In this document: one piece after another, positions 1,997 to 56,155 of the stretch
Layout of the letters: every line of letters starts with the position of its first letter
Numbering within the stretch: position 1 is the first letter of the stretch
Assembly (NCBI GenBank): GCA_963840035.1
Contig: CAWIXE010000003.1
Coordinates: forward strand, 384,001 to 448,000
Length of the DNA: 64,000 nt
From: a candidate division FCPU426 bacterium
GTDB taxonomy: Bacteria; Oederibacteriota; PGYV01; Palsa-1178
Direction of reading: 5' to 3'
Notes under the pieces: generated by a model
Told to the model about the DNA's origin: nothing
The model's database searches: none
Seen by the model: only the letters and a program-made list of their open reading frames with translations
Position numbers and translations under genes: made by a program

Positions 1997-2074
1997 GTGG
2001 CTGCTACAGGCCGGTTTTCTTTATGGATTGCACAGTAGCGCAGGCCATAAAGAAAACCGGCCTGCAGCAGCCAC
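1997..2074. repeat. 30-bp inverted repeat with an 18-nt loop
   Basis: GTGGCTGCTACAGGCCGGTTTTCTTTATGG and CCATAAAGAAAACCGGCCTGCAGCAGCCAC are complementary at 29 of 30 positions. Confidence 0.9.
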
Positions 2075-2143
2075 GGGTTATGCCCCGTCAACCTGCTGTA
2101 GTGCGGTTTGTTGATTATATATTAAAATACTTGAGGAGGTTTT

Positions 2144-2566: not shown

Positions 2567-2607
2567 ATAGTTAAGAGGCAGGAGACAAAAGTAAGGCCGG
2601 AGGAAAA

Positions 2608-2802
2608 ATGAACTGCGAGAATATCAATAAAAACATGAAAGGCTGCAACTGCACATATGAACCCTGTTCCCGCAAGGGCAAGTGCTGCGAATGCGTGGCT
2701 TACCACAGGGCGTCGGACGAACTTCCGGCGTGTTTCTTTTCAACGGCAGCTGAAAGCACATATGACAGAAGCTTTAGCAGGTTCATAAAAGACAGGGGTT
2801 AA
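2608..2802 (+). CDS. Small Cys-rich protein (DUF6485-like)
   Basis: [22 protein letters not shown]...LPACFF...TYDRS; GGAGG RBS. Confidence 0.75.
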
Positions 2803-2929
2803 TGGCAGAAATTAGAAATATACATATATGCCTGATTAGGTTCATATCTAATATCCGATATCAAATATAGAGGAGTGAAATGCAATTCTCCTCCAGTGTA
2901 TACCATACTTTCAAAGGACGTGTAAGAAC

Positions 2930-4261: not shown

Positions 4262-4263
4262 AA

Positions 4264-12657: not shown

Positions 12658-12709
12658 AAAATATATTCCGGATTATGGATTCTAAATTTTGGATTGAAAG
12701 AAGGCTTGC

Positions 12710-20990: not shown

Positions 20991-21019
20991 TTGACAAAAA
21001 ACTTCACGCCAGTTATAAT
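20991..21019 (+). promoter_or_regulatory. Consensus sigma70 promoter
   Basis: TTGACA-17 nt-TATAAT. Confidence 0.85.
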
Positions 21020-23025: not shown

Positions 23026-23060
23026 AAAAAGGCGCGGCATAAAGCCGCGCCTTTTTGTTT
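23026..23060 (+). terminator. Intrinsic terminator
   Basis: AAAAAGGCGCGGC-ATAAA-GCCGCGCCTTTTT. Confidence 0.9.
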
Positions 23061-23399: not shown

Positions 23400-23428
23400 T
23401 TGACAAAATAGCTATCTGTTTGTATAAT
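23400..23428 (+). promoter_or_regulatory. Consensus sigma70 promoter for the operon containing the giant gene
   Basis: TTGACA-17 nt-TATAAT. Confidence 0.85.
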
Positions 23429-23589: not shown

Positions 23590-24921
23590 ATGGAAAAGTT
23601 TTCCGCGAAATATAGTGTAATTCTGACAACAGTTTTAATAATATTTTTCGCGTCCGCGAATGTTTTTGCGGCAACTCTTTCCGTCTGCCAACCGTCGGGT
23701 TGCACATATAGCACAATAGCGGCAGCTTTAAACGCGGCTGCCGCGAGCGGAGATACGATCGTTATTTCCAGTAATATTTCTGAGGACTGCGCGATACCGA
23801 ACAATTTAAACAAAACTGTGGCGATTACATCCGATGGGACCAGAAGGACCTGGACAAACGCAGGCGGTTCGAATGTATCAATATCAAATATTGGCACATC
23901 GTGCAACCTGTCATTTTCAAACCTCGACATAGTAAATACCACTGGAAGCACAATGATGAACTTTACGAATTTCCAGCCCGGAACCACATTTAGTTTTATT
24001 AACTGTACCCTGAAGAATACAACACAGAGCGGAAGGCTTGTCGACCTGCAAAATGGAGGGTTCCTGAATTTTTACGAGTGCGAGCTTGTCGGAAACAACC
24101 TGACTTCGGAGGGGATACTGCTTGAATCCGGCGTGGGTTCGGGCAAAGGGCTGTATATGCAAAATTCCATAATAAGGGGCATATCAAACGGCAAAGCCCT
24201 GAATGACCAGTATGCCAGCGGCGCCAACGCGACACTCAGGAACTGCACCTTTGAGGGAAACAGCATCGCGATAGAAACCCAGGGCGCGCTTACGGTCCGA
24301 AACACACTTTTTATAAACAACACAAATGACTTAAATCTCACGAATATTAACGCCTGGGCTACCGCGGCGATGAACAGCGCGTACCAGTACTGCAGTTTCC
24401 ACGAACAGACCACAACGATATCGGACGGAGGAGCGCACGCCTGGACCGGTTATACGGGGAATATATTCGGCACTCCGAACACGATAGTACAGGATTATGT
24501 GAACCACAACCTGCACCTTGACTGCGGCGACACCGTCTATGCTGTGGATAAAGGCGCTAACATGTCCGCGTACTATACGGTGGACAAAGACTACATGCAG
24601 AGGCCGCAGGGAACCGCGTATGATATCGGAGCGTATGAGTGCCCGTCGCTTCAGATATCGAAGTCGGCAAATGTGTCCGCCGCGTACCTCGGTGATACGG
24701 TGACATACTGCATAACTTACACGAACAATTCCACGGATGACAAGGATACGGATATCTGGGACACGGTCCCGGGGAACATGGTGTTTTCTGGATGCGATAA
24801 TTCCTGCGACACGCAGGCGTACGGCATTTATAACGTGGTGCACTGGTACATAGCGCTCCCGCCGGGAGCGTATGGCACAGTGTGTTTTTACGCGAGGATA
24901 ACGGATTACGTAAGGCCTTAA
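23590..24921 (+). CDS. Secreted right-handed beta-helix (pectin-lyase-like) protein with a choice-of-anchor-Q-like motif and a C-terminal truncated DUF11-like domain
   Basis: Signal peptide; YSTIAAALNAA..GDTI; Asn-rich coils (NCTL, NCTFEGN, NTLF); HL..AVDKG..RPQG..DIGAYE; ISKSAN..GDTVTYCI..WDTVP..GTVCF then stop. Confidence 0.75.
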   Translation: MEKFSAKYSVILTTVLIIFFASANVFAATLSVCQPSGCTYSTIAAALNAAAASGDTIVISSNISEDCAIPNNLNKTVAITSDGTRRTWTNAGGSNVSISNIGTSCNLSFSNLDIVNTTGSTMMNFTNFQPGTTFSFINCTLKNTTQSGRLVDLQNGGFLNFYECELVGNNLTSEGILLESGVGSGKGLYMQNSIIRGISNGKALNDQYASGANATLRNCTFEGNSIAIETQGALTVRNTLFINNTNDLNLTNINAWATAAMNSAYQYCSFHEQTTTISDGGAHAWTGYTGNIFGTPNTIVQDYVNHNLHLDCGDTVYAVDKGANMSAYYTVDKDYMQRPQGTAYDIGAYECPSLQISKSANVSAAYLGDTVTYCITYTNNSTDDKDTDIWDTVPGNMVFSGCDNSCDTQAYGIYNVVHWYIALPPGAYGTVCFYARITDYVRP

Positions 24922-24951: not shown

Positions 24952-25683
24952 GTGAATGCAAGATGGGCGGCGGCAGTAAAAATCAAAACACATATTTATG
25001 TATTTATAATCATTCTGGCGATGCATTCTATTTCTTATGCTACTGCTTCGATTGTTAGTGTCACAACGAGCCCGAGCCCCGCGTGTGGGGCCGCTACGCA
25101 GACGATTAGTGTGACCGTTGTTTTTTCTGAAAATTCTGCGTGGCAGGCTGTTTATGGAGCGGTTGTTTTTTCTGCAGATGCTTCTTGGACTAGCTCAGAT
25201 ACTTGGGCGGTAGGAGGTACAGGATGCGACCCGTGCTGCGACGGGGCGCTTTGGGGAACTGCGGGGGGCACTGTTCCGCAGACTTTTACCTGGGCAGGTA
25301 ATGTAACAATACCCAGCGGGTCATTTACACGTATGCTTATAGCAACACATACTGGGACACAATACAATTGCGGCAGTGATGGTTCCGCCATGACGTGGAT
25401 TGTATTTTCGCCTTCATGCAGCCCCATCACATCAGTAAATAAATCAGCGGATAAAACATCCATGTATGTGGGAGATACTGTGTCGTTCTGTCTTACCACG
25501 ACAAATACCGGCGGGTCAAATTATACTTTCAATATGTGGGACACGGTGCCGGCAGGACTGACTTATCTGGACTGCAGCGATTCTTGCACGTATTCGGGAG
25601 GAGTCGTGTCCTGGACGATTACAAATCTCGCCGGCAGCAGTGCGGTGACAAGGTGTTTTCGGGCAACGGCTAATACCCCGTAG
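24952..25683 (+). CDS. Secreted Cys-rich protein: head domain paralogous to the giant's N-terminus plus a truncated DUF11-like domain
   Basis: Signal peptide; [48 protein letters not shown] then stop; AGGAG RBS. Confidence 0.75.
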   Translation: MNARWAAAVKIKTHIYVFIIILAMHSISYATASIVSVTTSPSPACGAATQTISVTVVFSENSAWQAVYGAVVFSADASWTSSDTWAVGGTGCDPCCDGALWGTAGGTVPQTFTWAGNVTIPSGSFTRMLIATHTGTQYNCGSDGSAMTWIVFSPSCSPITSVNKSADKTSMYVGDTVSFCLTTTNTGGSNYTFNMWDTVPAGLTYLDCSDSCTYSGGVVSWTITNLAGSSAVTRCFRATANTP

Positions 25684-25749: not shown

Positions 25750-28700
25750 ATGAATACAAACAGGCTAACCGCGGTAAAGAGCGGGATAATGCTGTTTGTA
25801 TTATTGTTTCTGATGCTGTTTCATGGCAGCGCGCTTTTTGGAGCGACCCTTGTTAGCTTCACATCAAACCCTTCTCCGGCGTGCGGCGCTGCAGGACAGA
25901 CTATCTCGCTTACCACGGTTGCAATAAGCGGTACATATACTACTATTTCGTACACTATAATGTTCTCGGCTGATACTACAGCGGGAAACGCAGGAGATGT
26001 ATATGTTGTTGGAACTAATTGCGCAAACGGCAATGCAGCTCTTGGAACTGAAAACGCTCCGGCGGTAAATATTACAAAAGTAGATACTGTGACTATACCT
26101 GCAGGAACATTTAATTACATAATAGTAACTTTAACTGATAATAATGGCAATGGCTGTTCCAATAAAGGGCAGATTGCGTTTACCACCGCATGCGGGCCGA
26201 CAAATACAACGACGGTTTCTCCTACTATCACACCTACGCCTACACCTACAAGGATATTTATCAGCAATACCGGATACGCGGACGGAAAAGCATCCAACAG
26301 CGTCAGTGTCGAGATCCTGCTTGTCGCCGGGCCGCCGACGAACACGCCTTCGATCACGCCGACGTATACCATAACGCAGACAGTGACGCCGACCGTCACG
26401 AGGACCATCACGCCGACCATCACGCTGACCGCGACAGATACATTTACCAGGACTATCACGCAGACTATTACGCAGACCAGCACGCAGACCGTTACACAGA
26501 CTACTACCCCGGTATTTTCCCTCACCATGACCATGACCGTTACCCAGACAGCCACGCAGACGGTGACCAGGACAATAACGCAGACGATAACGCAGACGAT
26601 AACACAGACGATAACACAGACGATAACGCAGACAATAACCGAGACTGTGACGCGGACCATATCTCCGACGTGGACCAACTCGCCGGATAACAGCATGACA
26701 TTTACACCGACGGCCACGCCGACTTCGTTCCCGGCATGTATTTTTTCGGATTATTTTAATAACGCATCATTTGACGCCTCAATATGGAACACCGCGAACG
26801 TCGGTGCCGGGTCCAACGGCAGCCAGGCGGAGTCGGGGAACCTTACCATTACTGCGCAGGGCGGGGACATTGCGGGTACGGCGGATTCGTTCTATTACAT
26901 TTATCAGAAGACCAGTTCGGCAAACCTCGACATAAGGTTCCGTGTCACTGCGATTGGCAGCCAGTGGAACTCAAGGGTAGGTATCATGATCAGGGAGTCA
27001 ACAGCTGCTAATTCGGCTTTTGCTTCCATAAACATCAATAATAACAGCCACGATGACATTTCTCAGCAAAGGGCCTCGACAGGCGCCGGTGTATCATCGA
27101 GCGACCACTATAACGGTGGCAACTACTTAAGGATGGTAAAGACCGGGAATCAGATAATAACCTATGATTCTCCTGACGGTATTACATGGAATATACAGCA
27201 GACATATAATTTCGCATCATTTGCAAGTGATTATACTGTGGGAATTGTTGCAACTTCAAACACGGGCAGCAATAACACCTTCAGCGGGCAGGATTTCCAT
27301 GTTCAGACTGGCGCCTGCGGAACCCCGACGTTTACTGCAACTCCTACAAACTCAAACACATATACAGTCACATATACGCGCACAAACACACCGACTATTA
27401 CCGTGACTTATTCCAGTACATATACAAGGACTATAACACCTTCAATAACCCCCACATTTACGATAACCCCGCGTACCATTGGTAATATCGCAAATACAAG
27501 GTTTGGCCAGTCAAATAACGTGCTTGTGGCGGTATTTACGCCGACAGGCGCAATAGCCACAAATACCTTTACTGCTACGCGCACATCCACACCCACAGGC
27601 ACGCCCACGGCGACAAGGACATATACTGCGTCAGTTACCCCTACAGGGGTGCAGAACGTGGGTAACTGGGATTACGGCCAATCCAACTTTGTTGGCCTCA
27701 TTATAGTAACACCTACATTCACGGCCACCATAACTGTTTCACCAACCGTAACACCCTCATTTACATTTACCTACACAATAACCAGGACACCAACCTTTAC
27801 AGTAACACAATCAGTTACGGTCAATAATACAAACACGGTAACTGTCACGGGGACGCCATCGGTTACTCAGACTTTGACGCCTACATATACAACTACCGTA
27901 ACGCAGACTGTGACCCCGACTATAACGCAGACTATGACCCAGTCTGTAACCAGGACTATAACCATTACTGTGACGCAGAGCGTAACGCAGACTGTAACCA
28001 CGACCATATCGCAGACTGTGACGCAGACGCTCACACAAACAGTGACACAGACAGTGTCGCAGACGGTAACTCAGACAGTGTCGCAGACAGTCACGCAAAC
28101 GGTTACGCCAACTACATCGCCGACTTATACGCGGACTATAACTTTGACCGCGACCCAGACCGTGACGCAGACCATGACCCAGACCGTTACGCAGACGTTG
28201 ACGCAGACTGTTACAACGACAATAACACAGACCGTCACACAGACGGCGACTCAGACTATAACTCAAACAGCGACACAGACGGCAACGCAGACCGTGACAC
28301 AGACCGCGACTCAGTCAATAACGCCTACGACATCGCCTACGTTTACCCAGACCGTCACACAGACAGTAACGCAGACAGTGACGCAGACAGTGACACAGAC
28401 AGTGACACAGACGCTGACGCAGACAGTAACTCAGACTGTGACACAGACGGTAACGCAGACGCTGACGCAGACAATAACACAGACGGTAACGCAGACGCTG
28501 ACGCAGACAATAACACAGACGGTAACGCAGACGCTGACGCAGACTGTGACGCAGACAGTAACGCAGACGCTGACACAGACAGTAACGCAGACGCTGACAC
28601 AGACAGTAACGCAGACTGTAACACAGACACTGACGCAGACGGTAACACAGACACTGACGCAGACGGTAACACAGACAGTGACGCAGACCGTATCGCAGAC

Positions 28701-31700
28701 AGTAACACAGACGCTGACGCAGACAGTAACACAGACAGTGACGCAGACAGTAACGCAGACAGTGACACAGACAGTAACGCAGACTGTGACTCAGACTGTA
28801 ACACAGACGCTGACGCAGACAATAACACAGACGCTGACACAAACAGTGACGCAGACAGTGACACAGACAGTGACACAGACGCTGACGCAGACAGTAACTC
28901 AGACTGTGACACAGACGGTAACGCAGACGCTGACGCAGACAATAACACAGACGGTAACGCAGACGCTGACGCAGACTGTGACGCAGACAGTAACGCAGAC
29001 GCTGACACAGACAGTAACGCAGACGCTGACACAGACAGTAACGCAGACTGTAACACAGACACTGACGCAGACGGTAACACAGACACTGACGCAGACGGTA
29101 ACACAGACAGTGACGCAGACCGTATCGCAGACAGTAACACAGACGCTGACGCAGACAGTAACACAGACAGTGACGCAGACAGTAACGCAGACAGTGACAC
29201 AGACAGTAACGCAGACTGTGACTCAGACTGTAACACAGACGCTGACGCAGACAATAACACAGACGCTGACACAAACAGTGACGCAGACAGTAACGCAGAC
29301 AGTGACACAGACAGTATCGCAGACAGTAACGCAGACGCTGACGCAGACAGTGACACAGACAGTGACGCAGACAGTAACACAGACAGTAACGCAGACAGTA
29401 ACTCAGACCGTAACACAGACACTGACACAGACGGTGACACAGACAGTAACGCAGACAGTGACGCAGACAGTATCGCAGACAATAACACAGACGCTGACAC
29501 AAACAGTGACGCAGACAGTAACGCAGACAGTGACACAGACAGTATCGCAGACAGTAACGCAGACGCTGACGCAGACAGTGACACAAACGGTAACGCAGAC
29601 AGTAACGCAAACAGTGACACAGACGGTAACGCAGACGCTGACGCAGACAGTGACGCAGACAGTGACGCAGACAGTATCGCAGACGGTAACACAGACGCTG
29701 ACGCAAACAGTGACACAAACTGTAACACAAACTGTAACGCAGACTGTTACACAAACAATAACACAAACAATAACACAAACAATAACACAAACAATAACAC
29801 AAACAATAACACAAACAATAACACAAACAGTGACTGAGACAGTAACTCAGACAGTGACACAGACAATAACGCAGACTGTATCTCAGACAGTAACACAGAC
29901 GTTGACGCAAACAGTAACACAGACTGTAACACAGACTGTATCGCAGACGGTGACACAGACTGTAACACAGACGCTGACTCAGACAGTGACACAAACTGTA
30001 ACACAAACGATAACGCAGACAGTGACACAGACAGTATCGCAGACGGTAACGCAGACTGTGACTCAAACTGTGACTCAAACTGTTACACAGACAATAACGC
30101 AAACATTGACACAGACTGTCACCCAGACTGTAACGCAAACTGTGACACAAACTGTATCGCAGACTGTAACGCAGACTGTGACTCAAACTGTTACACAGAC
30201 AGTGACACAGACAGTAACGCAAACATTGACCCAGACTGTCACGCAAACTGTATCACAGACAGTAACGCAAACGTTGACACAGACAGTGACGCAAACAATA
30301 ACACAAACAGTGACTGAGACGGTAACACAGACGCAGACACAGACAGTGACACAAACTGTAACACAAACGATAACGCAGACTGTGACACAGACAGTATCGC
30401 AGACGGTAACACAGACTGTGACACAGACAGTATCGCAGACGGTAACACAGACGGTAACACAGACTGTGACTCAAACTGTTACACAGACAGTGACTCAAAC
30501 TGTTACACAGACAGTGACTCAAACTGTTACACAGACAGTGACTCAAACTGTAACTCAAACAGTAACGGAGACAGTAACACAGACAGTGACGCAGACCGTT
30601 ACGCGAACAGTAACTGAGACAGTAACCCAGACTATGACACAGACAGTAACGCAGACAATTACACAAACAGTAACGCAAACGTTGACGCAGACAGTAACTG
30701 AGACAGTAACGCAGACTGTTACACAAACAGTGACACAAACAGTGACACAAACAGTGACACAAACAGTGACACAAACAGTGACGCAGACAGTGACGCAGAC
30801 AGTGACGCAAACAGTAACTGAGACAGTGACACAGACCGTTACGCGAACAGTAACTGAGACAGTAACCCAGACTATGACACAGACAGTAACGCAAACAGTG
30901 ACCCAGACAGTCACCCAGACTGTCACACAAACTGTATCACAGACAGTTACGCAGACGATAACTCAGACAGTAACTGAGACAGTAACACAAACGTTGACGC
31001 AGACAGTAACACAGACAGTGACGCAGACGGTGACGCAGACAGTGACGCAAACAGTAACTGAGACAGTGACACAGACCGTTACGCGAACAGTAACTGAGAC
31101 AGTAACCCAGACTATGACACAGACAGTAACGCAAACAGTGACCCAGACAGTCACCCAGACTGTCACCCAGACTGTCACCCAGACTGTCACCCAGACTGTC
31201 ACCCAGACTGTCACCCAGACTGTCACCCAGACTGTCACCCAGACTGTCACCCAGACTGTCACCCAGACTGTCACACAAACTGTATCACAGACAGTTACGC
31301 AGACGATAACTCAGACAGTAACTGAGACAGTAACACAAACGTTGACGCAGACAGTAACACAGACAGTGACGCAGACGGTGACGCAGACAGTGACGCAGAC
31401 AGTAACGCAGACAGTAACGCAGACAGTGACACAGACAGTGACGCAGACAGTGACACAGACAGTGACGCAGACAGTGACACAGACAGTGACGCAGACAGTA
31501 ACACAGACCGTTACTCAGACTGTAACTGAAACAGTGACACAGACAGTGACTCGGACAGTAACGCAGACAGTAACTGAGACAGTAACGCAGACAGTGACAC
31601 AGACAGTAACGCAGACCGTTACTCAAACAGTAACACAGACAGTGACGCAGACAATCACACTGACGGTGACACAAACAGTAACGCAGACAGTTACTCAAAC

Positions 31701-34700
31701 AGTAACACAGACAGTAACACAGACAGTGACACAAACAGTAACACAAACCGTTACTCAGACAGTAACTGAAACAGTGACACAGACCGTCACACAGACTGTA
31801 ACTGAGACAGTAACACAAACAGTAACGCAAACTGTAACAGAAACTATAACCCAGACCGTAACGCAGACCGTAACGCAGACCGTAACACAGACCGTAACAC
31901 AGACCGTAACTAAAACAGTCACGCAGACTGTAACTGAAACCATAACGCAGACGGTAACGCAGACCGTAACGCAGACAATGACACAGACCGTGACGCAAAC
32001 GGTAACGCAGACAGTGACAGAGACGATAACACAGACAATGACACAGACCGTAACACAAACGGTAACGCAGACAGTGACAGAGACGATAACGCAGACAATG
32101 ACGCAGACCGTAACGCAAACGGTTACGCAGACAGTGACAGAAACGATAACGCAGACAATGACGCAGACCGTAACGCAAACGGTTACGCAGACAGTGACAG
32201 AAACGATAACGCAGACAATGACACAGACCGTAACGCAAACGGTGACGCAGACAGTGACAGAGACTATAACGCAGACAATGACGCAGACCGTAACGCAAAC
32301 GGCGACGCAGACAGTGACAGAGACGATAACGCAGACAATGACGCAAACCGTAACGCAAACGGTTACGCAGACAGTGACAGAGACGATAACGCAGACAATG
32401 ACACAGACCGTAACGCAAACGGTAACGCAGACAGTAACGCAGACAGTGACAGAGACGATAACGCAGACAATGACGCAAACCGTAACGCAAACGGTAACGC
32501 AGACAGTGACAGAAACTATAACGCAGACAATGACGCAAACCGTAACGCAAACGGTTACGCAGACAGTGACAGAAACGATAACGCAGACAATGACGCAGAC
32601 CGTAACACAAACGGCGACGCAGACAGTGACAGAGACTATAACGCAGACAATGACGCAGACCGTAACGCAAACGGTTACGCAGACAGTGACAGAGACGATA
32701 ACGCAGACAATGACACAGACCGTAACGCAAACGGTGACGCAGACAGTGACAGAGACTATAACGCAGACAATGACGCAGACCGTAACACAAACGGCGACGC
32801 AGACAGTGACAGAGACTATAACGCAGACAATGACGCAGACCGTAACGCAAACGGTTACGCAGACAGTGACAGAGACGATAACGCAGACAATGACGCAGAC
32901 CGTAACGCAAACGGTTACGCAGACAGTGACAGAGACGATAACGCAGACAATGACGCAGACCGTAACGCAAACGGTTACGCAGACAGTGACAGAGACGATA
33001 ACGCAGACAATGACGCAGACCGTAACGCAAACGGTTACGCAGACAGTGACAGAAACGATAACGCAGACAATGACACAGACCGTAACGCAAACGGTGACGC
33101 AGACAGTGACAGAGACTATAACGCAGACAATGACGCAGACCGTAACGCAGACAATAACTGAGACCGCTACGCAGACGGTGACCGAGACAGCAACACAGAC
33201 CGTGACGGAGACAATAACGCAGACCGTTACACAGACAGTAACACAAACAGTGACGCAGACCGTAACTCAAACCATAACTGAGACTGTGACCCAGACTATA
33301 ACAGAGACGATAACGCAAACCGTTACGCAGACAGTTACTCAGACTATTACTGAGACTGCAACACAGACTGTTACACAGACTGCGACTCAGACTGTCACAG
33401 AGACAATAACGCAGACCATTACTCAAACAGTAACCCAGACCATAACTGAAACAATTACACAGACAGTAACAGAGACGATTACTCAGACCGTGACGCAGAC
33501 AGCAACACAGACTGTTACTGAGACTGTCACGCAGACAATTACAGAAACGATAACTCAGACAATCACCCAGACAGTAACAGAGACGATAACGCAGACCATT
33601 ACACAGACAGTAACAGAGACTGCAACGCAGACAGTAACGGAGACGATAACTCAGACCGTGACGCAGACGGTAACGCAGACTGTTACAGAGACTGCAACCC
33701 AGACAGTAACGGAGACGATAACTCAGACTGTAACACAGACGGTAACGCAGACTGTTACAGAGACGGCAACACAAACAATTACAGAAACTATAACGCAGAC
33801 CATGACACAAACGGTTACGCAGACTGTAACTGAGACTGCAACGCAGACTGTTACTGAGACAGCCACGCAAACAATCACGGAAACCATAACGCAGACCATG
33901 ACACAGACGGTAACCCAGACAGTGACAGAGACTGCAACGCAGACAGTAACAGAGACGATAACTCAGACCATAACTCAGACGGTAACGCAGACTGTTACTG
34001 AGACGGCAACGCAAACAATTACAGAAACTGCAACACAGACAGCGACTGAGACTGCGACCCAGACAGTAACAGAGACGATAACGCAGACCATGACACAGAC
34101 GGTAACCCAGACAGTGACTGAGACTGCAACGCAGACAGTAACAGAGACGATAACTCAGACCGTGACACAGACGGTAACTCAGACTGTTACTGAGACTGCT
34201 ACACAAACAATTACAGAAACGATGACTCAAACAATCACGCAAACAGTCACCCAGACTGTTACAGAGACGATAACACAGACAATTACACAGACAGTGACAG
34301 AAACTGCAACGCAGACAGTGACAGAGACTGCAACCCAGACTGTAACAGAGACTGCAACCCAGACAGTGACTGAGACCGCAACCCAGACTGTAACAGAAAC
34401 TGTGACTCAGACGGTAACTGAGACAATAACGCAAACCATTACACAGACAATTACGGAGACGATCACGCAGACTATAACAGAGACTGCAACGCAGACAGTA
34501 ACTGAAACCGCAACACAGACAGTGACAGAAACAGCAACCCAGACTGTCACTGAGACCGCTACTCAGTCAGTGACGGAAACAATAACTCAGACTGTTACGC
34601 AAACTGTAACGCAGACAGTAACAGAGACAGCTACACAGACAGCTACACAGACAGTAACAGAAACTGCAACGCAGACAGTGACTGAGACAGTGACACAGAC

Positions 34701-37700
34701 AATTACAGAAACGAATACACAGACAGTGACAGAGACTGCAACGCAGACAATAACTGAGACGATAACGCAGACGGTGACAGAAACAGCGACACAGACTGTG
34801 ACTCAGACGGTAACAGAAACGATAACCCAGACTATTACACAAACAGTAACACAGACGATTACGGAGACTATAACGCAGACGGTTACGGAGACTGCGACGC
34901 AGACAGTGACAGAGACTGCAACCCAGACAGTAACAGAAACAGTAACGCAGACAGTAACAGAGACGGTCACGCAGACGGTTACGGAGACAGTGACACAGAC
35001 TGTAACAGAGACTGCCACTGAAACTATAACGGAGACAATAACACAGACCATAACTCAGACAGTTACGCAGACAATTACGGAGACAGCGACACAGACTGTA
35101 ACGGAGACTGCGACGCAGACAGTGACAGAGACTGCAACCCAGACAGTAACAGAAACAGTAACGCAGACAGTAACAGAGACGATCACACAGACGGTTACGG
35201 AGACTGCGACGCAGACAGTGACAGAGACTGCAACCCAGACAGTAACAGAAACAGTAACGCAGACAGTTACAGAGACGATCACACAGACGGTTACGGAGAC
35301 TGCGACGCAGACAGTGACAGAGACTGCAACCCAGACAGTAACAGAAACAGTAACGCAGACAGTAACAGAGACGGTCACGCAGACGGTTACGGAGACAGCG
35401 ACACAGACAGTGACAGAGACTGCAACCCAGACAGTAACAGAAACAGTAACGCAGACAGTAACAGAGACGATCACACAGACGGTAACGGAGACTGCGACGC
35501 AGACAGTGACAGAGACTGCAACCCAGACAGTAACAGAAACAGTAACGCAGACAGTAACAGAGACGATTACGCAGACGGTTACGGAGACTGCGACCCAGAC
35601 AGTGACAGAGACTGCCACTGAAACTATAACGGAGACAATAACACAGACCATTACTCAGACAGTTACGCAGACAATTACGGAGACAGCGACACAGACTGTT
35701 ACGGAGACAGCGACACAGACAGTGACAGAGACTGCAACCCAGACAGTAACAGAAACAGTAACGCAGACAGTAACAGAGACGATCACACAGACGGTAACGG
35801 AGACTGCGACGCAGACAGTGACAGAGACTGCAACCCAGACAGTAACAGAAACAGTAACGCAGACAGTAACAGAGACGATTACGCAGACGGTTACGGAGAC
35901 TGCGACCCAGACAGTGACAGAGACTGCCACTGAAACTATAACGGAGACAATAACACAGACCATTACTCAGACAGTTACGCAGACAATTACGGAGACAGCG
36001 ACACAGACTGTAACGGAGACTGCGACGCAGACAGTGACAGAGACTGCAACCCAGACAGTAACAGAAACAGTAACGCAGACAGTAACAGAGACGATCACAC
36101 AGACGGTTACGGAGACTGCGACGCAGACAGTGACAGAGACTGCAACCCAGACAGTAACAGAAACAGTAACGCAGACAGTAACAGAGACGGTCACGCAGAC
36201 GGTTACGGAGACAGCGACACAGACAGTGACAGAGACTGCAACCCAGACAGTAACAGAAACAGTAACGCAGACAGTAACAGAGACGATCACACAGACTGTA
36301 ACGGAGACTGCGACGCAGACAGTGACAGAGACTGCAACCCAGACAGTAACAGAAACAGTAACGCAGACAGTTACAGAGACGATCACACAGACGGTTACGG
36401 AGACTGCGACGCAGACAGTGACAGAGACTGCAACTGAAACCATAACGGAAACAATGACGCAGACCATAACAGAGACAGTGACGCAGACGATAACAGAGAC
36501 AGCAACGCAAACAGTAACAGAGACTGCGACGCAGACAGTGACAGAGACTGCAACAGAAACCATAACGGAAACAGTGACGCAGACCATAACAGAGACGGTA
36601 ACGCAGACAGTTACAGAGACGATAACGCAAACAATAACAGAGACGATGACCCAAACAATTACTGAAACAGTGACCCAGACAGCAACAGAGACAGCAACGC
36701 AAACAATAACAGAGACGATGACCCAAACAATTACTGAAACAGTGACCCAGACAGCAACAGAGACGGCAACAGAGACAGTGACGCAGACGGTAACAGAGAC
36801 TGCGACGCAGACAGTGACAGAGACTGCAACAGAAACCATAACGGAAACAATTACGCAGACCATAACAGAGACGGTAACGCAGACAGTAACAGAGACGATA
36901 ACGCAGACGATTACAGAGACAGCAACGCAAACAATAACAGAGACGATGACCCAAACAATTACTGAAACAGTGACCCAGACAGCAACTGAGACAGCAACTG
37001 AGACTGCAACTGAAACTGCCACAGAGACTGCAACTGAGACTGCAACTGAAACAGCCACAGAGACTGCAACAGAGACTGCAACTGAGACTGCAACTGAAAC
37101 AGCCACAGAGACAGCAACTGAGACAGCAACTGAGACAGCAACTGAGACAGCAACTGAGACAGCAACTGAGACAGCAACTGAGACGGCAACTGAGACAGCA
37201 ACTGAGACAGCAACAGAGACGGCAACAGAGACGGCAACAGAGACCGTGACGCAGACGGCAACAGAGACTGCGACGCAGACGGTGACAGAGACTGCAACAG
37301 AAACCATAACGGAAACAATGACGCAGACCATAACAGAGACGGTAACGCAGACAGTTACAGAGACGATAACGCAAACAATAACAGAGACGATGACCCAAAC
37401 AATTACTGAAACAGTGACCCAGACAGCAACAGAGACGGCAACAGAGACAGTGACGCAGACGGTAACAGAGACTGCGACGCAGACAGTGACAGAGACTGCA
37501 ACAGAAACCATAACGGAAACAATTACGCAGACCATAACAGAGACGGTAACGCAGACAGTAACAGAGACGATAACGCAGACAGTAACAGAGACGATAACGC
37601 AGACGATTACAGAGACAGCAACTGAGACTGCAACTGAAACAGCAACAGAGACTGCAACAGAAACAGCAACAGAAACAGCAACAGAAACAGCAACAGAAAC

Positions 37701-40700
37701 AGCAACTGAGACAGCAACTGAGACAGCAACTGAGACAGCAACAGAGACGGCAACAGAGACGGCAACAGAGACGGCAACAGAGACGGCAACAGAGACGGCA
37801 ACAGAAACGGCAACAGAGACAGTGACGCAGACGGTAACAGAGACTGCGACGCAGACAGTGACAGAAACTGCAACAGAAACCATAACGGAAACAATGACGC
37901 AGACCATAACAGAGACGGTAACGCAGACGATTACAGAGACAGCAACGCAAACAATAACAGAGACGATGACCCAAACAATTACTGAAACAGTGACCCAGAC
38001 GGCAACTGAGACGGCAACTGAGACGGCAACTGAGACGGCAACTGAGACGGCAACTGAGACGGCAACTGAGACGGCAACTGAGACGGCAACTGAGACGGCA
38101 ACTGAAACAGCTACAGAGACGGCAACAGAGACCGTGACGCAGACGGTGACAGAGACTGCAACAGAAACCATAACGGAAACAATGACGCAGACCATAACAG
38201 AGACGGTAACGCAGACAGTTACAGAGACGGTAACGCAGACGATTACAGAGACAGCAACGCAAACAATAACAGAGACGATGACCCAAACAATTACTGAAAC
38301 AGTGACCCAGACAGCAACTGAGACAGTAACTGAGACTGCAACTGAAACAGCCACAGAGACTGCAACAGAGACTGCAACTGAGACTGCAACTGAAACAGCC
38401 ACAGAGACTGCAACAGAGACTGCAACTGAGACTGCAACTGAGACTGCAACTGAGACTGCAACTGAGACTGCAACTGAAACAGCCACAGAGACAGCAACTG
38501 AGACAGCAACTGAGACAGCAACAGAGACAGCAACAGAGACGGCAACAGAGACGGCAACAGAGACGGCAACAGAGACCGTGACGCAGACGGCAACAGAGAC
38601 TGCGACGCAGACGGTGACAGAGACTGCAACAGAAACCATAACGGAAACAATGACGCAGACCATAACAGAGACGGTAACTCAGACAGTTACAGAGACGATA
38701 ACGCAGACGATTACAGAGACAGCAACGCAAACAATAACAGAGACGATGACCCAAACAATTACTGAAACAGTAACCCAGACAGCAACTGAGACTGCAACTG
38801 AAACAGCCACAGAGACTGCAACTGAAACAGCCACAGAGACAGCAACTGAGACTGCAACTGAGACAGCAACTGAGACAGCAACTGAGACTGCAACTGAGAC
38901 TGCAACTGAGACTGCAACTGAGACTGCAACTGAGACTGCAACTGAGACTGCAACTGAGACTGCAACTGAGACTGCAACTGAGACAGCAACTGAGACAGCC
39001 ACAGAGACTGCAACAGAGACAGCCACAGAGACAGCCACAGAGACAGCCACAGAGACAGCCACAGAGACAGCCACAGAGACTGCAACTGAGACTGCAACAG
39101 AGACTGCAACAGAGACTGCAACAGAGACTGCAACAGAGACTGCAACAGAGACTGCAACAGAGACTGCAACAGAGACAGCAACTGAGACAGCAACTGAGAC
39201 AGCAACTGAGACAGCAACTGAGACAGCAACTGAGACAGCAACTGAGACAGCAACTGAGACAGCAACTGAGACAGCAACTGAGACAGCAACTGAGACTGTT
39301 ACGGAGACAGCGACAGAGACTGTTACGGAAACAGCAACAGAGACTGCAACAGAAACCGCCACAGAGACTGCAACTGAGACTGCGACAGAGACAGCAACTG
39401 AGACAGCAACTGAGACTGCAACTGAGACTGCAACTGAGACTGCAACAGAAACAGCAACAGAAACAGCGACAGAAACAGCGACAGAAACAGCGACAGAAAC
39501 AGCGACAGAAACAGCGACTGAGACAGCGACAGAGACAGCAACTGAGACAGCAACAGAAACAGCAACAGAAACAGCAACAGAAACAGCAACAGAAACAGCA
39601 ACTGAGACAGAGACAGAGACTGTTACGGAGACAGCAACAGAAACAGCAACTGAGACAGCGACAGAGACTGCAACGGAAACAGCGACTGAGACTGCGACAG
39701 AGACAGCAACTGAGACTGCAACGGAGACAGCTACAGAAACCGCGACTGAGACAGTCACAGAGACTGTCACAGAGACAGCAACGGAAACAGTAACTGAGAC
39801 AGCAACTGAGACTGCTACAGAGACAGCAACGGAAACAGCAACGGAAACTGCAACTGAGACTGCAACTGAGACTGCAACTGAGACTGCAACTGAGACTGCA
39901 ACTGAGACTGCAACTGAGACTGCAACTGAGACTGCAACTGAGACTGCAACTGAGACTGCAACTGAGACTGCTACAGAGACTGCTACAGAGACTGCTACAG
40001 AGACAGCAACGGAAACAGCAACTGAGACAGTCACAGAGACTGCAACGGAGACAGCTACAGAAACCGCGACTGAGACAGTCACAGAGACTGCTACAGAAAC
40101 CGCGACTGAGACAGTCACAGAGACTGCAACGGAGACAGCTACAGAAACCGCGACTGAGACAGTCACAGAGACTGCTACGGAGACTGCTACAGAAACCGCG
40201 ACTGAGACAGTCACAGAGACAGCAACGGAAACAGCAACTGAGACAGCAACTGAGACAGCCACAGAGACAGCAACGGAAACAGCAACTGAGACAGCAACTG
40301 AGACTGCTACGGAGACTGCTACAGAAACCGCGACTGAGACAGTCACAGAGACTGCAACGGAGACAGCTACAGAAACCGCGACTGAGACAGTCACAGAGAC
40401 TGCAACGGAGACAGCCACAGAAACCGCGACTGAAACAGTAACAGAAACTGCCACGGAAACCGTAACAGAGACTGCGACTGAGACTGTGTCTGAGACTGTT
40501 ACTGAAACTGCGACAGAGACAGTCTCTGAAACTATAACGGAAACCGCTACTGAAACGGCTTCTGAAACAGTGACTGAGACGGTGACTGAAACACCTACAT
40601 TTACTGCAACAGAAACTGTTACTGAAACTGTGACAGAGACTGCGACAGAAACAGCTACAGAGACTTCCACGGAAACAGCAACTGAAACAGCCACAGAGAC

Positions 40701-42015
40701 TGCTACAGAAACTGCGACTGAAACAGTGACGGAGACAGCCACAGAGACGGCCACAGAGACTGCCACGGAAACAGCGACTGAAACAGTAACTGAGACTGTC
40801 ACTGAAACACCTTCGGATACGGAAACAGCCAGCGCTACGGCCACACCGACCATAACGACTTCAGTATCGGCAACCAGCACTTATACAACTACCTCGTCAG
40901 CAACTAAAACCGGGACACCTACAGGCACGTCCACTGTGACCGCGACCGGAACTTTCACAAACACCAATACACCGCCGGCTACGCCTACATTTACATCAAC
41001 ACCGACATTGACCGGAACACCGTCACTTACTATGACTTCCACATGGACTAATACGGAATCTCCTACTGCTTCGCCCACAAGCAGCGTTTCGCCGACGACA
41101 TCGCCGACGCCCGAATACTACATGAAAATAGCTGTATATAACTCCGCGGGCGAGCAGGTAAAAGAGATAATTACGTCAGGCGCTTATTCCATACCGGATT
41201 CATTCAACCTGGACAAGACTACGTTCAGCCCGGATGACGGAAGCGTGGCGCAGATAAGCGTTGACCAGACGGTCGTTAGCTGGGACGGCAAGAACCAGCA
41301 GGGCAAGAATGTTGAGAACGGAATATATTACGTTAAGGTTTCCATAGTTGACGATTACGGGTTCAGCCATACGCTGATAAAGGAAGTTACTGTGTTGACA
41401 AACGGCATTATGGCCGAACTCAGGATATATAACAGCGCCGGTGAAGTCGTAAAGAGGATAGATATTGAAGGGCTTACACTCACAGGTTCCACCGTGCTTG
41501 ATGTAAATCCGAAAGCGCCTGGCGCCTTCTCGCCGGGTGACGGGGATTCAGGTGCAGCAGAAGCCATATTTACATACATGGGCCATGACATAGCATGGGA
41601 CGGCACAAATGACGGCGGAAAGATTGTCGGGAACGGCGTGTACAGGGCTGTGGTTGTCAGGACGGATAATAAAGGCTACACATCAGTCGCTGAAAATTAC
41701 CTCACCGTGCTGCATGGCAATTATGAAGTGGTCGCGAACATAAGGATAATACCTAACCCGATAGACATGAGAAAGACATCGGTAATAACCATAAAGTATG
41801 ACGCCATGAACGGGGCCGTGGTTGTCGCGAAAATATACAACCTTGCAGGAGAACTCATCAGGGAGCTCAAACCGTTTAATGGCGCGAATGAGATAGTCTG
41901 GGATATAAAGTATGATGCTACAATTTCCCAGGGGCTTTACGTGGCGGTTATTCACGCTGAAACACCGCAGGGCATGAGAAAGACGGTCGTGGCAAAGTTC
42001 ACAATAATAAAGTAA
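25750..42015 (+). CDS. Giant (5,421 aa) secreted Thr-rich surface protein: head domain, ConA/DUF1349-like domain, three isolated hairpin motifs, (T-X)n stalk, two FlgD-Ig-like domains, T9SS-type C-terminal domain
   Basis: Uninterrupted 16.3-kb ORF with AGGAG RBS and signal peptide; [38 protein letters not shown] and [31 protein letters not shown]. Confidence 0.9.
27880..40800 (+). repeat. ~13-kb coding tandem repeat of 12-bp units (T-Q/E-T-V/I/L/M/A/S) with higher-order duplications
   Basis: ACN-CAR/GAR-ACN-NNN periodicity; 60-bp units at ~31981-33130; 432-bp offset duplication (28501 vs 28933). Confidence 0.97.
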
Positions 42016-42025: not shown

Positions 42026-42061
42026 ACAAAGGGCACGGGCTTAAACCGTGCTCTTTGTATT
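42026..42061 (+). terminator. Intrinsic terminator after the giant gene
   Basis: ACAAAGGGCACGG-GCTTAAA-CCGTGCTCTTTGT. Confidence 0.7.
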
Positions 42062-52682: not shown

Positions 52683-54755
52683 TTGAAAAGACATGATGAT
52701 GAAATAAACAAAGAGGACATAATAAAGCTCCTCAAAACAGAGAAGCACGGCATGAATGCCAGGACCGTCATGCAGAAGCTTAAAATACCAAACAAATACC
52801 GCGCCACGGTCAAAAGGATACTAAAGGACCTCTCAAAAGAAGGCGCGCTGTTTAAGGATCATAAGAAATTCTCCGCTGAGGAAAGCAAAAAAACCATAAC
52901 GGGCAAGATTGACATACGCAATGAGTTCGGGTTTCTTTCCATGCCGGCAGGCGCGGGAGAGGATATCTTCATAAGCCCCAGGAACGCTGAGTACCTGCTT
53001 CCCGGAGATGTGATAGAAGTCTACCCCAGGCCGAGCAGGAGCGGCGGCATTGAAGGCGATTTAAAAAGGGTGGTCAGCAGGACAGAGGCGCCCGTTATGT
53101 GCAGGGTATCCTCGCAGGGCCGCGAAGTCTACGGGGTGCTTCCTTTCAAACTTAACCCCAGGATACGCATAATTAAACCGGCGGACAACCTCGAAGACGG
53201 GGACCTGGTGCTGCTTAAAGTTACAGATGTTGCCGGCGCTTTAACCGGCGAGGTTATCTCCCATATATACGACAAAAGCGACCTTAGCCTGTATGTCCAG
53301 TTCATACTCAACCGCTGCGAGATCCGGCAGGCTTTTTCCGACAATGTACTGGCCGAAGCTGAAGGGATGAGCATTGATACATCAAATACAACTGGAAGGG
53401 TTGACCTGCGCGATGAGATAATAGTCACAATAGACCCGAAAGACGCCAAGGATTTTGATGATGCCATATCGCTAGAGAAAAAAGGCGATAATTATATGCT
53501 TGGTGTACACATAGCCGATGTGACACACTACATAAAGGAAGGTTCGGAACTTGACGCGGAAGCCGCGCTCCGAGGGACCAGCGTTTACCTTCCGGGTTCT
53601 GTCATACCCATGCTGCCTGAAAAACTCTCGAACGGGCTGTGTTCACTTAAGGGCGGGGAAGACAGGATGGCCTTTTCCATATTTATGAATGTGGGCAAGG
53701 ACGGACAAATCATAGATTACTCCATAAAAGAAACCATTATTAATAACAAACGCCGTTTTACCTATGAGGAAGTGGAAGACATATTAAACGGCGCGCCTTT
53801 CGCCGATAAGCAAATAAAGGACACACTCATGCTGATGAACGAGCTGAAAACCATCATGAGGAAGAAATTCCGGGCGGAGGGCGCGATTGATTTTACCCTT
53901 GGCGAGCCTGTTTTTGTTTATGGCGCTGATGGAAAGATAGAGAATATAATCAGGAAGGAATCGCTGGAATCCAACAAACTCATAGAATATTTTATGGTAT
54001 CGGCGAACATATGCGCCGCTGATTTCATAACGAAAAATTCACGGAACGGCATGTTCCGGGTCCATGAGAAGCCGTCGCAGAGGGATGTTGATGAATTTAA
54101 CACATACATGCGCGGGCTGGGGCTTGACGTCAAGATGAAAAAGGGTTCAAACGGCGAATTCCAGAGGGTCATTGACAGCGTTAAGGACCATGAAAAAAGG
54201 TATTTAATCGAGAAGAACCTGCTGCGCGCCATGAAGCTCGCGAGGTACTCCGAGAAAAATCTCGGCCACTTCGGGCTCGGCCTTGAAAAATACACCCATT
54301 TTACCTCGCCCATCAGGCGCTATGCGGATGTCATAGTGCACAGGTTAATCAAACATTTCTCCGGCGTGGAAACCATGAAGGACGCGGAAAAAAGGTATCT
54401 TATGGAGACTGCGGACAATATATCGTCATGCGAGGAAAGGTCTGAAAAGGCGGAAAATGACATGTTCAGGCTTTACGCCCTTGATTTTTTAAAGCCGAGG
54501 CTTGGGGACGTTTTTGAAGGGGTAATATCAAGGGTGACAAAAAACGGGCTTATCGTGGAATTGAAAGATTATCCTGTGGAAGGTTTCGTGGGTTTTGATA
54601 TAATGATGGATGACTACTACGTATTCGACCAGTTCAGGCAGACTGCCACCGGCAAAAGGACGAAGAGGATATTTTCCACGGGTAAAACCGTATCCGTTGC
54701 CATTGACAGGATTGACCTGGAATCCCTTAAATTGGAACTGGAGCTTGTTAAATGA
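52683..54755 (+). CDS. rnr: Ribonuclease R
   Basis: TIDPKDAKDFDDA, VHIADV, RGTSVYLP, HFGL...YTHFTSPIRRY, C-terminal S1 domain. Confidence 0.93.
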   Translation: MKRHDDEINKEDIIKLLKTEKHGMNARTVMQKLKIPNKYRATVKRILKDLSKEGALFKDHKKFSAEESKKTITGKIDIRNEFGFLSMPAGAGEDIFISPRNAEYLLPGDVIEVYPRPSRSGGIEGDLKRVVSRTEAPVMCRVSSQGREVYGVLPFKLNPRIRIIKPADNLEDGDLVLLKVTDVAGALTGEVISHIYDKSDLSLYVQFILNRCEIRQAFSDNVLAEAEGMSIDTSNTTGRVDLRDEIIVTIDPKDAKDFDDAISLEKKGDNYMLGVHIADVTHYIKEGSELDAEAALRGTSVYLPGSVIPMLPEKLSNGLCSLKGGEDRMAFSIFMNVGKDGQIIDYSIKETIINNKRRFTYEEVEDILNGAPFADKQIKDTLMLMNELKTIMRKKFRAEGAIDFTLGEPVFVYGADGKIENIIRKESLESNKLIEYFMVSANICAADFITKNSRNGMFRVHEKPSQRDVDEFNTYMRGLGLDVKMKKGSNGEFQRVIDSVKDHEKRYLIEKNLLRAMKLARYSEKNLGHFGLGLEKYTHFTSPIRRYADVIVHRLIKHFSGVETMKDAEKRYLMETADNISSCEERSEKAENDMFRLYALDFLKPRLGDVFEGVISRVTKNGLIVELKDYPVEGFVGFDIMMDDYYVFDQFRQTATGKRTKRIFSTGKTVSVAIDRIDLESLKLELELVK

Positions 54756-56155
54756 AAAAAATATGTTTTGCGGCACTCTTCCTTCTTTTAGCCTGCATCA
54801 TAGGCGCTTCCTCCTCAGGGGTTACCTCTGTTTTTGATCTTGGCACCAGCGTCAGGGCGCAGAGCCTGGGCGGCGCTTTTACCGCGGCTGTAGATGACCC
54901 GGGCTGCATATATTTTAACCCTGCTTCGCTGCATACGCTTGAGCGTACAAGGATGGAAGCCGCATATATTCCCATGTTTTTTGACACTGCATACAGCTAC
55001 ATATTGATAGGTCTTCCCACGGTGGATGTAGGAACTTTTGGGTTCTCGGCCGCCATGATAAGGACGGGCAATCTGACAATCAGGGATGCAGGAGGGACAA
55101 AACTTTACGACAGCTCACAGGTTTTGTTTGAATCGGTCATGGGATGGGGCAGGGATTTCTTTGACGAACGCTTAAGCCTGGGAGTAAACGCGAGGCTTGA
55201 TTACCATTACCTGGAAAATTTTACAAGCGACATCGGGGCCGGGATTGATGTGGGCGCGTTATACCGCGTAATACAGGATAAAACACAGGTGTTAAACGCG
55301 GGTTTAACTTTAAGGAACGCCCTGGAGCCGGCTCTAAAACTAGGGACAGGCGATAACACCGTGCCCAGAAGGCTCGTAGCCGGAATTTCCTATAACATGA
55401 CAATAATACCTGAAATATCCGCAGCGGTTTACGCGGACTTTACAGCGCCCCTATGGGCTGATTTTGATTTCGCGGCCGGCATAGAAGGGGTATTTTACAA
55501 AACGGTTTCACTCAGGATCGGGTTTAACTCATACGGTATATATTCGGCTGGCGCGGGCGTTAACATCCTGGATATCGCGGCAATCGATTACGGACTTTTT
55601 ATTTCCGAGATAGACACTCAGCACAGGCTCGCGCTTAAAATGTTCTTCGGGGAGAACATCCCGGAGCAACGCAGGGAAAAGGTAAAAATAGAAGCCGCAA
55701 AGATAGAAAAAAAGGCGAAGGAACTGGCCGCAAAAGAACTCCTTCAGCTGCGCGGGCAGATAGACAAGATGACAGGCGCGGCCACGCAGAAGGAACGTTT
55801 TAAGGCCGTTCATTATACGCGGGGCATAGAGGCATATTTTGACGGGGATTTAAAAACTTCAGCCGCGGAATTTGACGCCGTGTACCAGGCGGACAGCGCG
55901 TATATGAATGTCCAATATTACCTTTCGATGCTAAAAGGCATGCTCGGACGCTCAAATCAGGATAATTATACCGAAGAAGTGCTCACGCTTTACAGGGACG
56001 GCGTGGCAAAGTACTTAAAACAGGATTACGCCGGAGCCAGGGATTCATGGCAAAAAATACTGAAAGCGGACCCTTACAATAAGCTGGCCATGGAGAACTT
56101 AAAGGAAGTTAACTCGCTTTTAAGGGACATAGACGGAATGAAGGAGAATAAATAG
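54752..56155 (+). CDS. PorV/PorQ-family beta-barrel protein with C-terminal TPR-like helices
   Basis: Signal peptide; RAQSLGGAFTAAVDD..IYFNPASL; IDVGALY; LRIG; IDYG...QHRL. Confidence 0.75.
   Translation: MKKICFAALFLLLACIIGASSSGVTSVFDLGTSVRAQSLGGAFTAAVDDPGCIYFNPASLHTLERTRMEAAYIPMFFDTAYSYILIGLPTVDVGTFGFSAAMIRTGNLTIRDAGGTKLYDSSQVLFESVMGWGRDFFDERLSLGVNARLDYHYLENFTSDIGAGIDVGALYRVIQDKTQVLNAGLTLRNALEPALKLGTGDNTVPRRLVAGISYNMTIIPEISAAVYADFTAPLWADFDFAAGIEGVFYKTVSLRIGFNSYGIYSAGAGVNILDIAAIDYGLFISEIDTQHRLALKMFFGENIPEQRREKVKIEAAKIEKKAKELAAKELLQLRGQIDKMTGAATQKERFKAVHYTRGIEAYFDGDLKTSAAEFDAVYQADSAYMNVQYYLSMLKGMLGRSNQDNYTEEVLTLYRDGVAKYLKQDYAGARDSWQKILKADPYNKLAMENLKEVNSLLRDIDGMKENK

Follow-up and report, generated by a model that had tools for sequence, protein, structure and literature searches.

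A 64,000-nucleotide stretch of the genome of a candidate division FCPU426 bacterium (assembly GCA_963840035.1, contig CAWIXE010000003.1, positions 384,001 to 448,000; hereafter the window) encodes a 5,421-residue protein, referred to here as the giant, directly preceded by three genes for smaller accessory proteins. The host is taken to belong to the candidate phylum Goldbacteria. The reading proposed here, with a probability of about 0.6, is that the giant is an O-glycosylated surface stalk that captures the products of these three genes by supplying what their truncated CLIPPER (DUF11) domains lack, and leaves the cell by a type IX-like export route. The source genome (G000, an assembly of three contigs) was compared with 40 relatives (G001 onward), 23 of them in the same order.

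Proposed split CLIPPER domains at the giant locus

DUF11 domains, also named CLIPPER, are described in PMC12617251 as holding a Lys715-Asn806 bond catalysed by Asp748, with Lys and Asp 33 residues apart in structure 9IFR. At the giant locus these three residues do not lie in one chain. Each accessory protein ends in a DUF11 domain, termed a catcher, which stops short of the final Asn hairpin that follows most internal DUF11 copies, and the Asn is found on short tags of the next gene. Catcher A closes accessory protein 3 (Lys164, Asp197; Pfam DUF11 positions 3-86 of 114) and catcher B closes accessory protein 2 (Lys358, Asp391), where the chain stops right past the domain core. In window positions, catchers A, B and C are encoded at 25417-25680, 24637-24912 and 22549-22881. 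Accessory protein 1 consists of an internal DUF11-like domain with its hairpin, a linker with Thr at every second position (Thr-X), and C-terminal catcher C (Lys485, Asp522). All three proteins have signal-peptide-like starts and no sorting domain.

The catchers resemble CLIPPER domains. DUF11 is matched at E<=0.01 by 21 of 22, and the best match of the catcher profile in the PDB is 9IFR (E 1.6e-4), whose Lys and Asp coincide with those of the catchers in the alignment. All 22/22 catchers have the two residues, at a spacing of 33 in 17, 34 in four and 37 in one. The heads of orthologous giants vary, with 22-residue islands within Thr tracts as their constant element, and these islands are shaped like the hairpin missing from the catchers. 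The preliminary description of this DNA had mentioned tags without explaining them; three such hairpin tags are present. The two Asn of a tag lie 10 residues apart in 18/18 cases, in a search pattern that permitted distances of 7-18. The strict motif occurs four times in the 1.6 million open reading frame (ORF) residues of the source genome, three of these in the giant's head.

The numbers of catchers and tags agree at 7 of the 8 orthologous loci of relatives in which both are assembled. Three catchers accompany three tags in the source genome and G002, and two accompany two in G011 and G012; in G003, G005, G006 and G007 the two pairs form a chain, since the middle gene bears one of the tags. 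The classes of tags go with those of the catchers (A with tag 1, B with tag 2, C with tag 3), the deep branches of the tree being unsettled. A tag profile built from relatives only ranked the giant's tags 1st, 3rd and 5th, and rank 2 went to a tag whose gene immediately follows that of another truncated catcher. Three further catcher-then-tag pairs lie on the - strand of the source genome (C2:1662610-1665045, 1217937-1220243 and 1208270-1210621), where the tag gene is a Thr-X, sorting-domain gene directly after the truncated CLIPPER gene; in two of the three tags, identified by eye, a Cys pair replaces the second Asn motif. Beyond the orthologous loci (20 regions around high-scoring matches, picked from 221 matches, with the orthologous G006 locus excluded), 16 of 23 truncated catchers are followed by a tag in the next gene.

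Several observations weigh against docking. The invariance of the tag Asn is circular, since both were demanded by the search pattern. Of the 16 tags found beyond the orthologous loci, 9 fell outside the strict pattern and were recognised by eye. G001, with two tags, one catcher and a remnant gene, is the exception to the matching numbers. Seven of the 23 catchers lack an adjoining tag (one at a contig end, four with an unrelated next gene, two with none seen), and an orphan catcher of the source genome (C1:911489-912832), a paralogue of accessory protein 2 with 37% identity, has no tag gene nearby. Compared with intact domains the tag profile gave no significant match (probability 1.5%), though Asn aligned on Asn. 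Complex prediction for catcher B and tag 2 lends weak support, with a score of 0.42 against 0.17 for the best control, a contact agreement of at least 93% between runs and a partner predicted local distance difference test (pLDDT) score of at least 66. The mark used was reached by 116/157 solved and 2/215 mismatched pairs; at scores <=0.60, it was reached by only 18 solved pairs and both mismatches. The prediction gave no interface, and the pass may reflect likeness to 9IFR. The case for docking is made from the anatomy and the matching numbers rather than from the complex model; binding of tag to catcher, and the bond, are predictions.

Two alternatives draw on these points. The giant could be a stand-alone Fap1-like adhesin, the upstream DUF11 proteins being unrelated truncated or free secreted proteins, as the catchers without tags and the insignificant profile match would allow. 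This account is distinctly improbable: it leaves aside the agreement in number at seven of eight loci, the chained layout included, and the pairing of tag and catcher classes. Alternatively, the tags may complete the catchers non-covalently, by plain donor-strand complementation, with stalk and docking the same. A bond cannot be shown from sequence and the complex model has no interface, but Lys and Asp are invariant at CLIPPER spacing and the Asn sits on the donated hairpin, so a purely non-covalent attachment seems rather unlikely. Under the docking reading, isopeptide Lys-Asn bonds between tags and catchers probably form spontaneously.

The orphan catcher could be an alternative tip for tag 2, and similar orphans occur in G009, G017, G022 and G023. 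The cassette is absent from G010:C10:320100-340056 (L105), where the flavin adenine dinucleotide (FAD) oxidase gene lies <=1.4 kb from the end of glyS. On contig C1 of the same genome (L156) lies a giant rich in Pro, Trp and Tyr, with a catcher and a tag of class 3; this giant ends in a frame change.

The threonine stalk

The preliminary description had Thr at nearly every second residue from about amino acid (aa) 710 to 5015, with polar (Q/E) and apolar (V/I/L/M/A) residues alternating between them and almost no Pro, Gly or aromatic residues. Counting bears this out. Thr occupies 2,126 of the 2,153 even positions in this range and Ser the other 27. Among intervening positions, V/A/I/M/L fill 1,066 of 1,076 in the apolar class and Q/E fill 1,057 of 1,077 in the polar class; Pro occurs 7 times in the range, aromatic residues 4 times and Gly not at all. 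The Thr/Ser register is unbroken from aa 694 to 5074, over 4,380 residues and 2,191 consecutive every-second positions, and the stalk register tally is 2,151 Thr to 33 Ser. A feature beyond that description is a steady drift of the unit, VTQT on the head side and ATET towards the tail, in which Glu per 200 aa climbs from 0 to about 50 (Spearman 0.68, the positions not being independent).

The register is constrained. The 12-base unit is present as 240 DNA variants that encode only 21 peptides. Single-base differences among these variants fall 299 times on the third position of a Thr codon without changing the residue, and 6 times they alter a Thr codon, each time as a Thr/Ser exchange. The 4,336 register sites counted in 16 orthologues are occupied by Thr at 4,256, by Ser at 69 and by other residues at 11, with no register shift. 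Ile and Ala, each one base from Thr, are almost absent from the register. The intervening sites of the orthologues accept almost any residue, including Pro at 313 of 4,328, and a 3,445-aa paralogue in G010 carries Pro at 449 of 1,314. The rigid 4-residue period described earlier is exact in the giant but is not conserved across relatives, where only the 2-residue Thr register is. Because the register admits only Ser in place of Thr while the sites between vary, Pro included, selection appears to act on a hydroxyl at every second residue and not on a beta-sheet. This hydroxyl-only substitution suggests that the Thr register is likely O-glycosylated.

Two forms of the stalk had been suggested earlier, a glycosylated mucin-like rod and an amphipathic beta-filament. 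A glycosylated Fap1-like rod is favoured because only Ser replaces Thr and the orthologues place Pro between the Thr residues. An unglycosylated beta-rich filament with a Thr ladder on one face appears unlikely. Thr, Val and Ile favour beta structure, the period is exact and aa 865-5015 contain a single Pro; against this stand the Pro residues of the relatives, and a regular beta-filament could not accommodate those of the G010 paralogue. The near absence at the register of Ile and Ala, together with the tolerance of Ser, is also hard to reconcile with such a filament. Two known classes of Thr-rich structure were considered and rejected: an ice-binding Thr-X-Thr array (the stalk is without turns and the orthologues are Pro-rich) and a Thr-Gln ester-bond domain (the stalk is without His/Asp catalytic residues and the orthologues are again Pro-rich).

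Some results count against the glycosylated rod. The stalk core is almost Pro-free and so compatible with local beta structure, and searches for GtfA, TMEM260-like and PMT_2 enzymes linked no glycosyltransferase to the stalk. The best TIGR02918 (GtfA) score in the source genome was 43.5 against a cut-off of 574.6, which no control genome passed either. No GtfA/B glycosyltransferase is found among the 42 window proteins, nor SecA2/SecY2 accessory export components, for which no genome-wide search was made. TMEM260 is described in PMC10214176 as an O-mannosyltransferase with distant bacterial homologues. TMEM260-like matches number 9 in the source genome, and the counts of 9, 25 and 1 across three genomes, all with giant stalks, single nothing out; a TMEM260-like enzyme as the stalk transferase is thus unsupported. 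The 24 PMT_2 matches of the source genome include none tied to the stalk. G010 has an unusually large GT-C-type set, with 25 TMEM260-like and 33 PMT_2 matches.

As a glycosylated rod, the stalk would measure about 0.55-0.66 micrometres when scaled from the Fap1 model, or 1.45 if fully extended; the earlier figure of ~1.4 micrometres holds as an upper bound. Both the architecture and the likeness to serine-rich-repeat adhesins support the suggestion that the repeat is a spacer projecting the head.

The repeat type is not unique to the giant. The source genome encodes 114 proteins with Thr-X runs (>=20 aa; 119 before removal of 5 Ser-dominated or antisense frames), 70 with a sorting domain and 29 with a lipobox-like motif. 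An N-terminal hydrophobic stretch is present in 106 of these 114 proteins versus 999 of 1,960 of all ORFs >=200 aa. From these counts Thr-X can be read as the lineage's general extracellular linker, of which the giant is the extreme case. In at least 29 lipoprotein-like proteins of this genome, the lipobox Cys is immediately followed by a Thr-X tether. Other very large secreted-looking ORFs of the source genome encode 6,864 aa (C2:520-21114), 3,993 aa (C1:1140591-1152572), 3,787 aa (C1:1199778-1211141) and 3,470 aa (C3:364228-374640), and the 3,993-aa and 3,787-aa ORFs have long Q/E-type Thr-X stalks.

Length and conservation of the stalk

Orthologues were sought with the C-terminal 298 aa of the giant. 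Clear ones were found in 16 of the 40 relatives (E < 1e-70, 43-59% identity), all within the same order. A search of a contig collection with the giant locus returned no orthologue but 25 loci, mostly short FlgD-motif matches, and a homologous-protein search for the giant gave 5 distant matches. The comparison of orthologue lengths that the preliminary description had proposed is bounded by the assemblies, as all 16 frames leave their contig inside the repeat (G023 judged from coordinates). The G002 orthologue, with its two ends on two contig ends, totals at least 3,245 aa and shows the Gln-to-Glu trend of the source genome; in G004 the acid trend is opposite, so the gradient is not universal. 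G027, of the same phylum and assembled as one contig, encodes a 6,084-aa frame that differs from the giant and in which aa 1298-5458 make up a Thr-X stalk of ~4,160 aa.

An assembly expansion of the repeat, which the preliminary description had raised, is unlikely because all 16 orthologues break inside the stalk and the one-contig G027 has its own stalk of similar type. That the length was inflated by assembly is very improbable indeed. Inflation would fit the 339 of 1,096 repeat units that sit in exact duplicates of >=10 units, and long-repeat ORFs do show assembly trouble in G003 (an N gap) and G010 (a frame change). The longest exact DNA repeat within the gene is only 383 bases, in a three-contig assembly, while the 13 kb are free of frame breaks and carry an ordered gradient; the lengths in G002 and G027 point the same way. 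A stalk of thousands of residues is a conserved feature; the exact length of 5,421 aa is that given by the assembly. The giant is conserved yet missing or fragmentary in the group's draft genomes, and the cutting of all 16 orthologues by contig ends marks a blind spot. Long antisense ORFs over the repeat were rejected as genes, being shadows of the Thr-X pattern. A further large frame in G027 (G027:C1:29362-54426 onward; L088, L089) encodes 8,355 aa with Ig-like repeats and a sorting domain; it is preceded by another open frame of at least 2,677 aa, and the two are possibly one frameshifted giant.

The head

The lectin-like domain named in the preliminary description could be located as a DUF1349-like match, but its score of 21.8 falls below the cut-off of 32.4. 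All 18 of the 18 alignment members matched at E<=0.1, the first Atlas match reached 0.96, and PDB entry 3o12 was matched at E 0.08; phmmer against the PDB gave no match. A single-sequence fold of the domain had low confidence (pLDDT 34.7). The N-terminal domain at aa 31-150 was assigned to no family by a Pfam-type scan, its best Atlas match being 0.85.

Orthologues carry other binding domains in this region: malectin in G002, and CBM3 with a DUF1349-like domain in G012. Domain searches assigned no family to the heads of G001, G003, G005, G007 and G011. There are five CBM3 matches in the source genome, and Goldbacteria captured on cellulose are reported in PMC7031533. Together these suggest that the tip probably has a role in attachment to polysaccharide surfaces.

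Export and anchoring

The placement of head and tags at the N-terminus and sorting domains at the C-terminus, as first described, is confirmed. The C-terminus scores 29.2 bits against TIGR04183 (cut-off 23 bits), and 20/20 alignment members match. The tail is modelled as three beta-sandwich domains (pLDDT 84), the last being a type A domain of type IX secretion (T9SS); Foldseek with the C-terminal model returned generic tandem beta-sandwich matches only (template modelling score < 0.3). The N-terminus, judged by eye, is signal-peptide-like. The source genome encodes 102 sorting-domain proteins and 39 PorV-family matches, 27 of them above the cut-off of 90. Of 37 PorV-family places (two fragments of one gene excluded), 25 lie <=1.5 kb from a sorting-domain gene, where random placement gave a mean of 2.9; the random draw ignores gene clustering. 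In Bacteroidota some T9SS cargo use cognate neighbouring shuttles, as described in PMC12618676. The giant is a type A-like cargo of an incomplete T9SS.

The gaps in this system tell against the proposed export route. A SprA-like ORF of 2,165 aa has four matching stretches (best E 5e-21) yet stays below the cut-off. GldM and GldN were not found in the three near-complete genomes G000, G010 and G027, though found in both controls; GldK and GldL were not searched. Their absence leaves the energy source of export unexplained. For the Bacteroidota T9SS, PMC10994853 describes energy as needed for release from the translocon, and the giant is a sharp test case for how a type IX-like pore works in the absence of the known motor. 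Among the matches listed for the same three genomes, PorU is covered only in its tail region, while both controls have it at full length. Because PorU was not detected, the tail of the giant is probably uncut and, held in a PorV-type barrel, may serve as the anchor.

Proposed assembly and significance

The following order of events is proposed. The giant would be exported by Sec, as its N-terminus suggests, and its Thr register glycosylated outside the cytoplasm. Each 22-residue tag would donate the last two strands, including the Asn, to a catcher that supplies the Lys and the catalytic Asp. The sorting domain may then carry the assembly through the SprA-like pore on a PorV-type barrel, with the accessory proteins, which have no sorting domain, riding along on the giant's signal. 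In the last and weakest step, the uncut tail would remain with the barrel as anchor. The outcome would be a fibril of about 0.55-1.45 micrometres that bears an exchangeable group of binding domains and probably serves attachment to polysaccharide surfaces.

The most novel form of the proposal is a natural multi-channel covalent plug-and-socket, in which split CLIPPER domains lock several tip proteins from separate genes onto orthogonal 22-residue tags of a glycosylated stalk on the micrometre scale, and the product leaves by a motor-less type IX-like exit on one sorting signal. It is advanced tentatively, at somewhat less than even odds. If true, this covalent swappable-tip fibril would be neither pilus nor cellulosome. 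It would be a new route of fibril building, in which a bond that forms by itself joins the tips in trans, neither sortase nor usher is needed, and tip subunits are exported without a sorting signal of their own. Catchers and tags are of small size, and with its three classes this one locus would offer natural orthogonal pairs for protein ligation.

In the literature covered (mostly open-access, main texts), no paper was found that deals with split DUF11 domains or with the Thr-X giants of this group. The terms 'threonine', 'linker' and 'T9SS' do not occur in the main text of PMC7031533, nor 'split', 'donor' or 'SpyTag' in that of PMC12617251. Goldbacteria are not mentioned in the main text of the giant-gene preprint 10.1101/2023.11.21.568195.

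Other features of the window

Coordinates are collected in Table 1. A hairpin at 42028-42056, just past the giant's stop, is terminator-like on the - strand and overlaps the called start of the FAD-oxidase gene. Elsewhere, the window contains two T2SSF (TadB/TadC-like) genes (11839-13567) and two ORFs of 800 and 323 aa without a Pfam match (13964-16366 and 51686-52657).

Table 1. Features of the giant locus, in window positions.
Feature	Position	Strand	Remarks
Sigma-70-type promoter-like site ahead of accessory gene 1	20991..21019	+	Consensus match only, 12/12
Accessory protein 1, 633 aa	21121..23022	+	Signal-peptide-like start, no sorting domain
Terminator-like hairpin after accessory gene 1	23026..23056	.	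Scored on -, T runs also on +
Sigma-70-type promoter-like site ahead of accessory genes 2, 3 and giant	23400..23428	+	Consensus match only, 12/12
Accessory protein 2, 443 aa	23590..24921	+	Signal-peptide-like start; body assigned to no family, beta-helix-like by eye
Accessory protein 3, 243 aa	24952..25683	+	N-terminal domain homologous to giant's first domain
Giant protein	25750..42015	+	Single ORF, 5,421 aa, one stop
Signal-peptide-like start (aa 1-30) and Cys-containing N-terminal domain (aa 31-150)	25750..26199	+	
Hairpin tag 1, aa 170-191, Asn173	26257..26322	+	Predicted partner catcher A
Short Thr-X tract, aa 200-322	26347..26715	+	
DUF1349/GH43_C2-like (concanavalin-A-type) domain	26737..27312	+	Putative carbohydrate binder
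Hairpin tag 2, aa 576-597, Asn579	27475..27540	+	Predicted partner catcher B
Hairpin tag 3, aa 633-654, Asn636	27646..27711	+	Predicted partner catcher C
Stalk, aa 694-5074, (apolar-Thr-Gln/Glu-Thr)n	27829..40971	+	Repeat analysis; neutral distally, acidic proximally
Two FlgD_ig-type beta-sandwich domains	41119..41718	+	Profile match, predicted structure
T9SS type A-like C-terminal sorting domain	41725..42012	+	TIGR04183, predicted structure
Nearest PorV/PorQ-family barrel gene	54752..56155	+	69 bits, below cut-off 90; co-location only

Comparison with known systems

The giant resembles serine-rich repeat adhesins in how it works, yet it falls outside their family. In Fap1 of Streptococcus parasanguinis, S(V/I/E) dipeptides extend over about 2,000 aa, for which the model is a glycosylated super-helix 250-300 nm long (PMC2952246), and the layout described for serine-rich repeat proteins in PMC7661464 is a short repeat, a variable binding region and a long repeat. 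Like Fap1, PsrP and GspB, the giant has a hydroxyl at alternate positions along a stretch of thousands of residues, flanks a binding region with two hydroxyl-X repeats, projects a head and ends in a C-terminal sorting signal. It differs in its use of Thr, in a T9SS-type rather than LPxTG tail and in the lack of a GtfA above cut-off. Its host, moreover, appears to be two-membraned, and the docking of separate tip subunits is not part of serine-rich repeat proteins as described in the sources cited.

In common with the Bacteroidota T9SS, as described in the sources cited above, the giant's system has cargo that starts with a signal peptide and ends in a type A domain, carriers of the PorV family, a candidate SprA-like large barrel and cargo genes that adjoin carrier genes. 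GldM, GldN and the PorU sortase are undetected here, in contrast, and about 37 PorV-family genes are present. Cargo without a sorting domain is also predicted to ride along.

The cellulosome offers a parallel in that its cohesin-dockerin scaffold gathers separately encoded modules, though that docking is non-covalent and the folds are unrelated. SpyTag/SpyCatcher is an engineered split CnaB in which a peptide tag covalently completes the domain, whereas the system of the giant would be natural, CnaA-type and based on a two-strand tag. The first-strand Lys, the Asp 33 residues later and the Asn on the second-last strand are those described for CLIPPER/DUF11 (PF01345, 9IFR); here the domain is divided between two genes and the bond would be intermolecular. 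An archaeal thread (PMC9715654) and BsaA of C. perfringens (10.1101/2024.11.04.621531) are described as combining a donor strand in trans with an intermolecular isopeptide lock. Those are head-to-tail homopolymers with an N-terminal strand, whereas the giant would use internal hairpins on a non-polymeric stalk to recruit up to three different proteins. The most novel part of the system is these tags, with the predicted multi-tag docking on a stalk.

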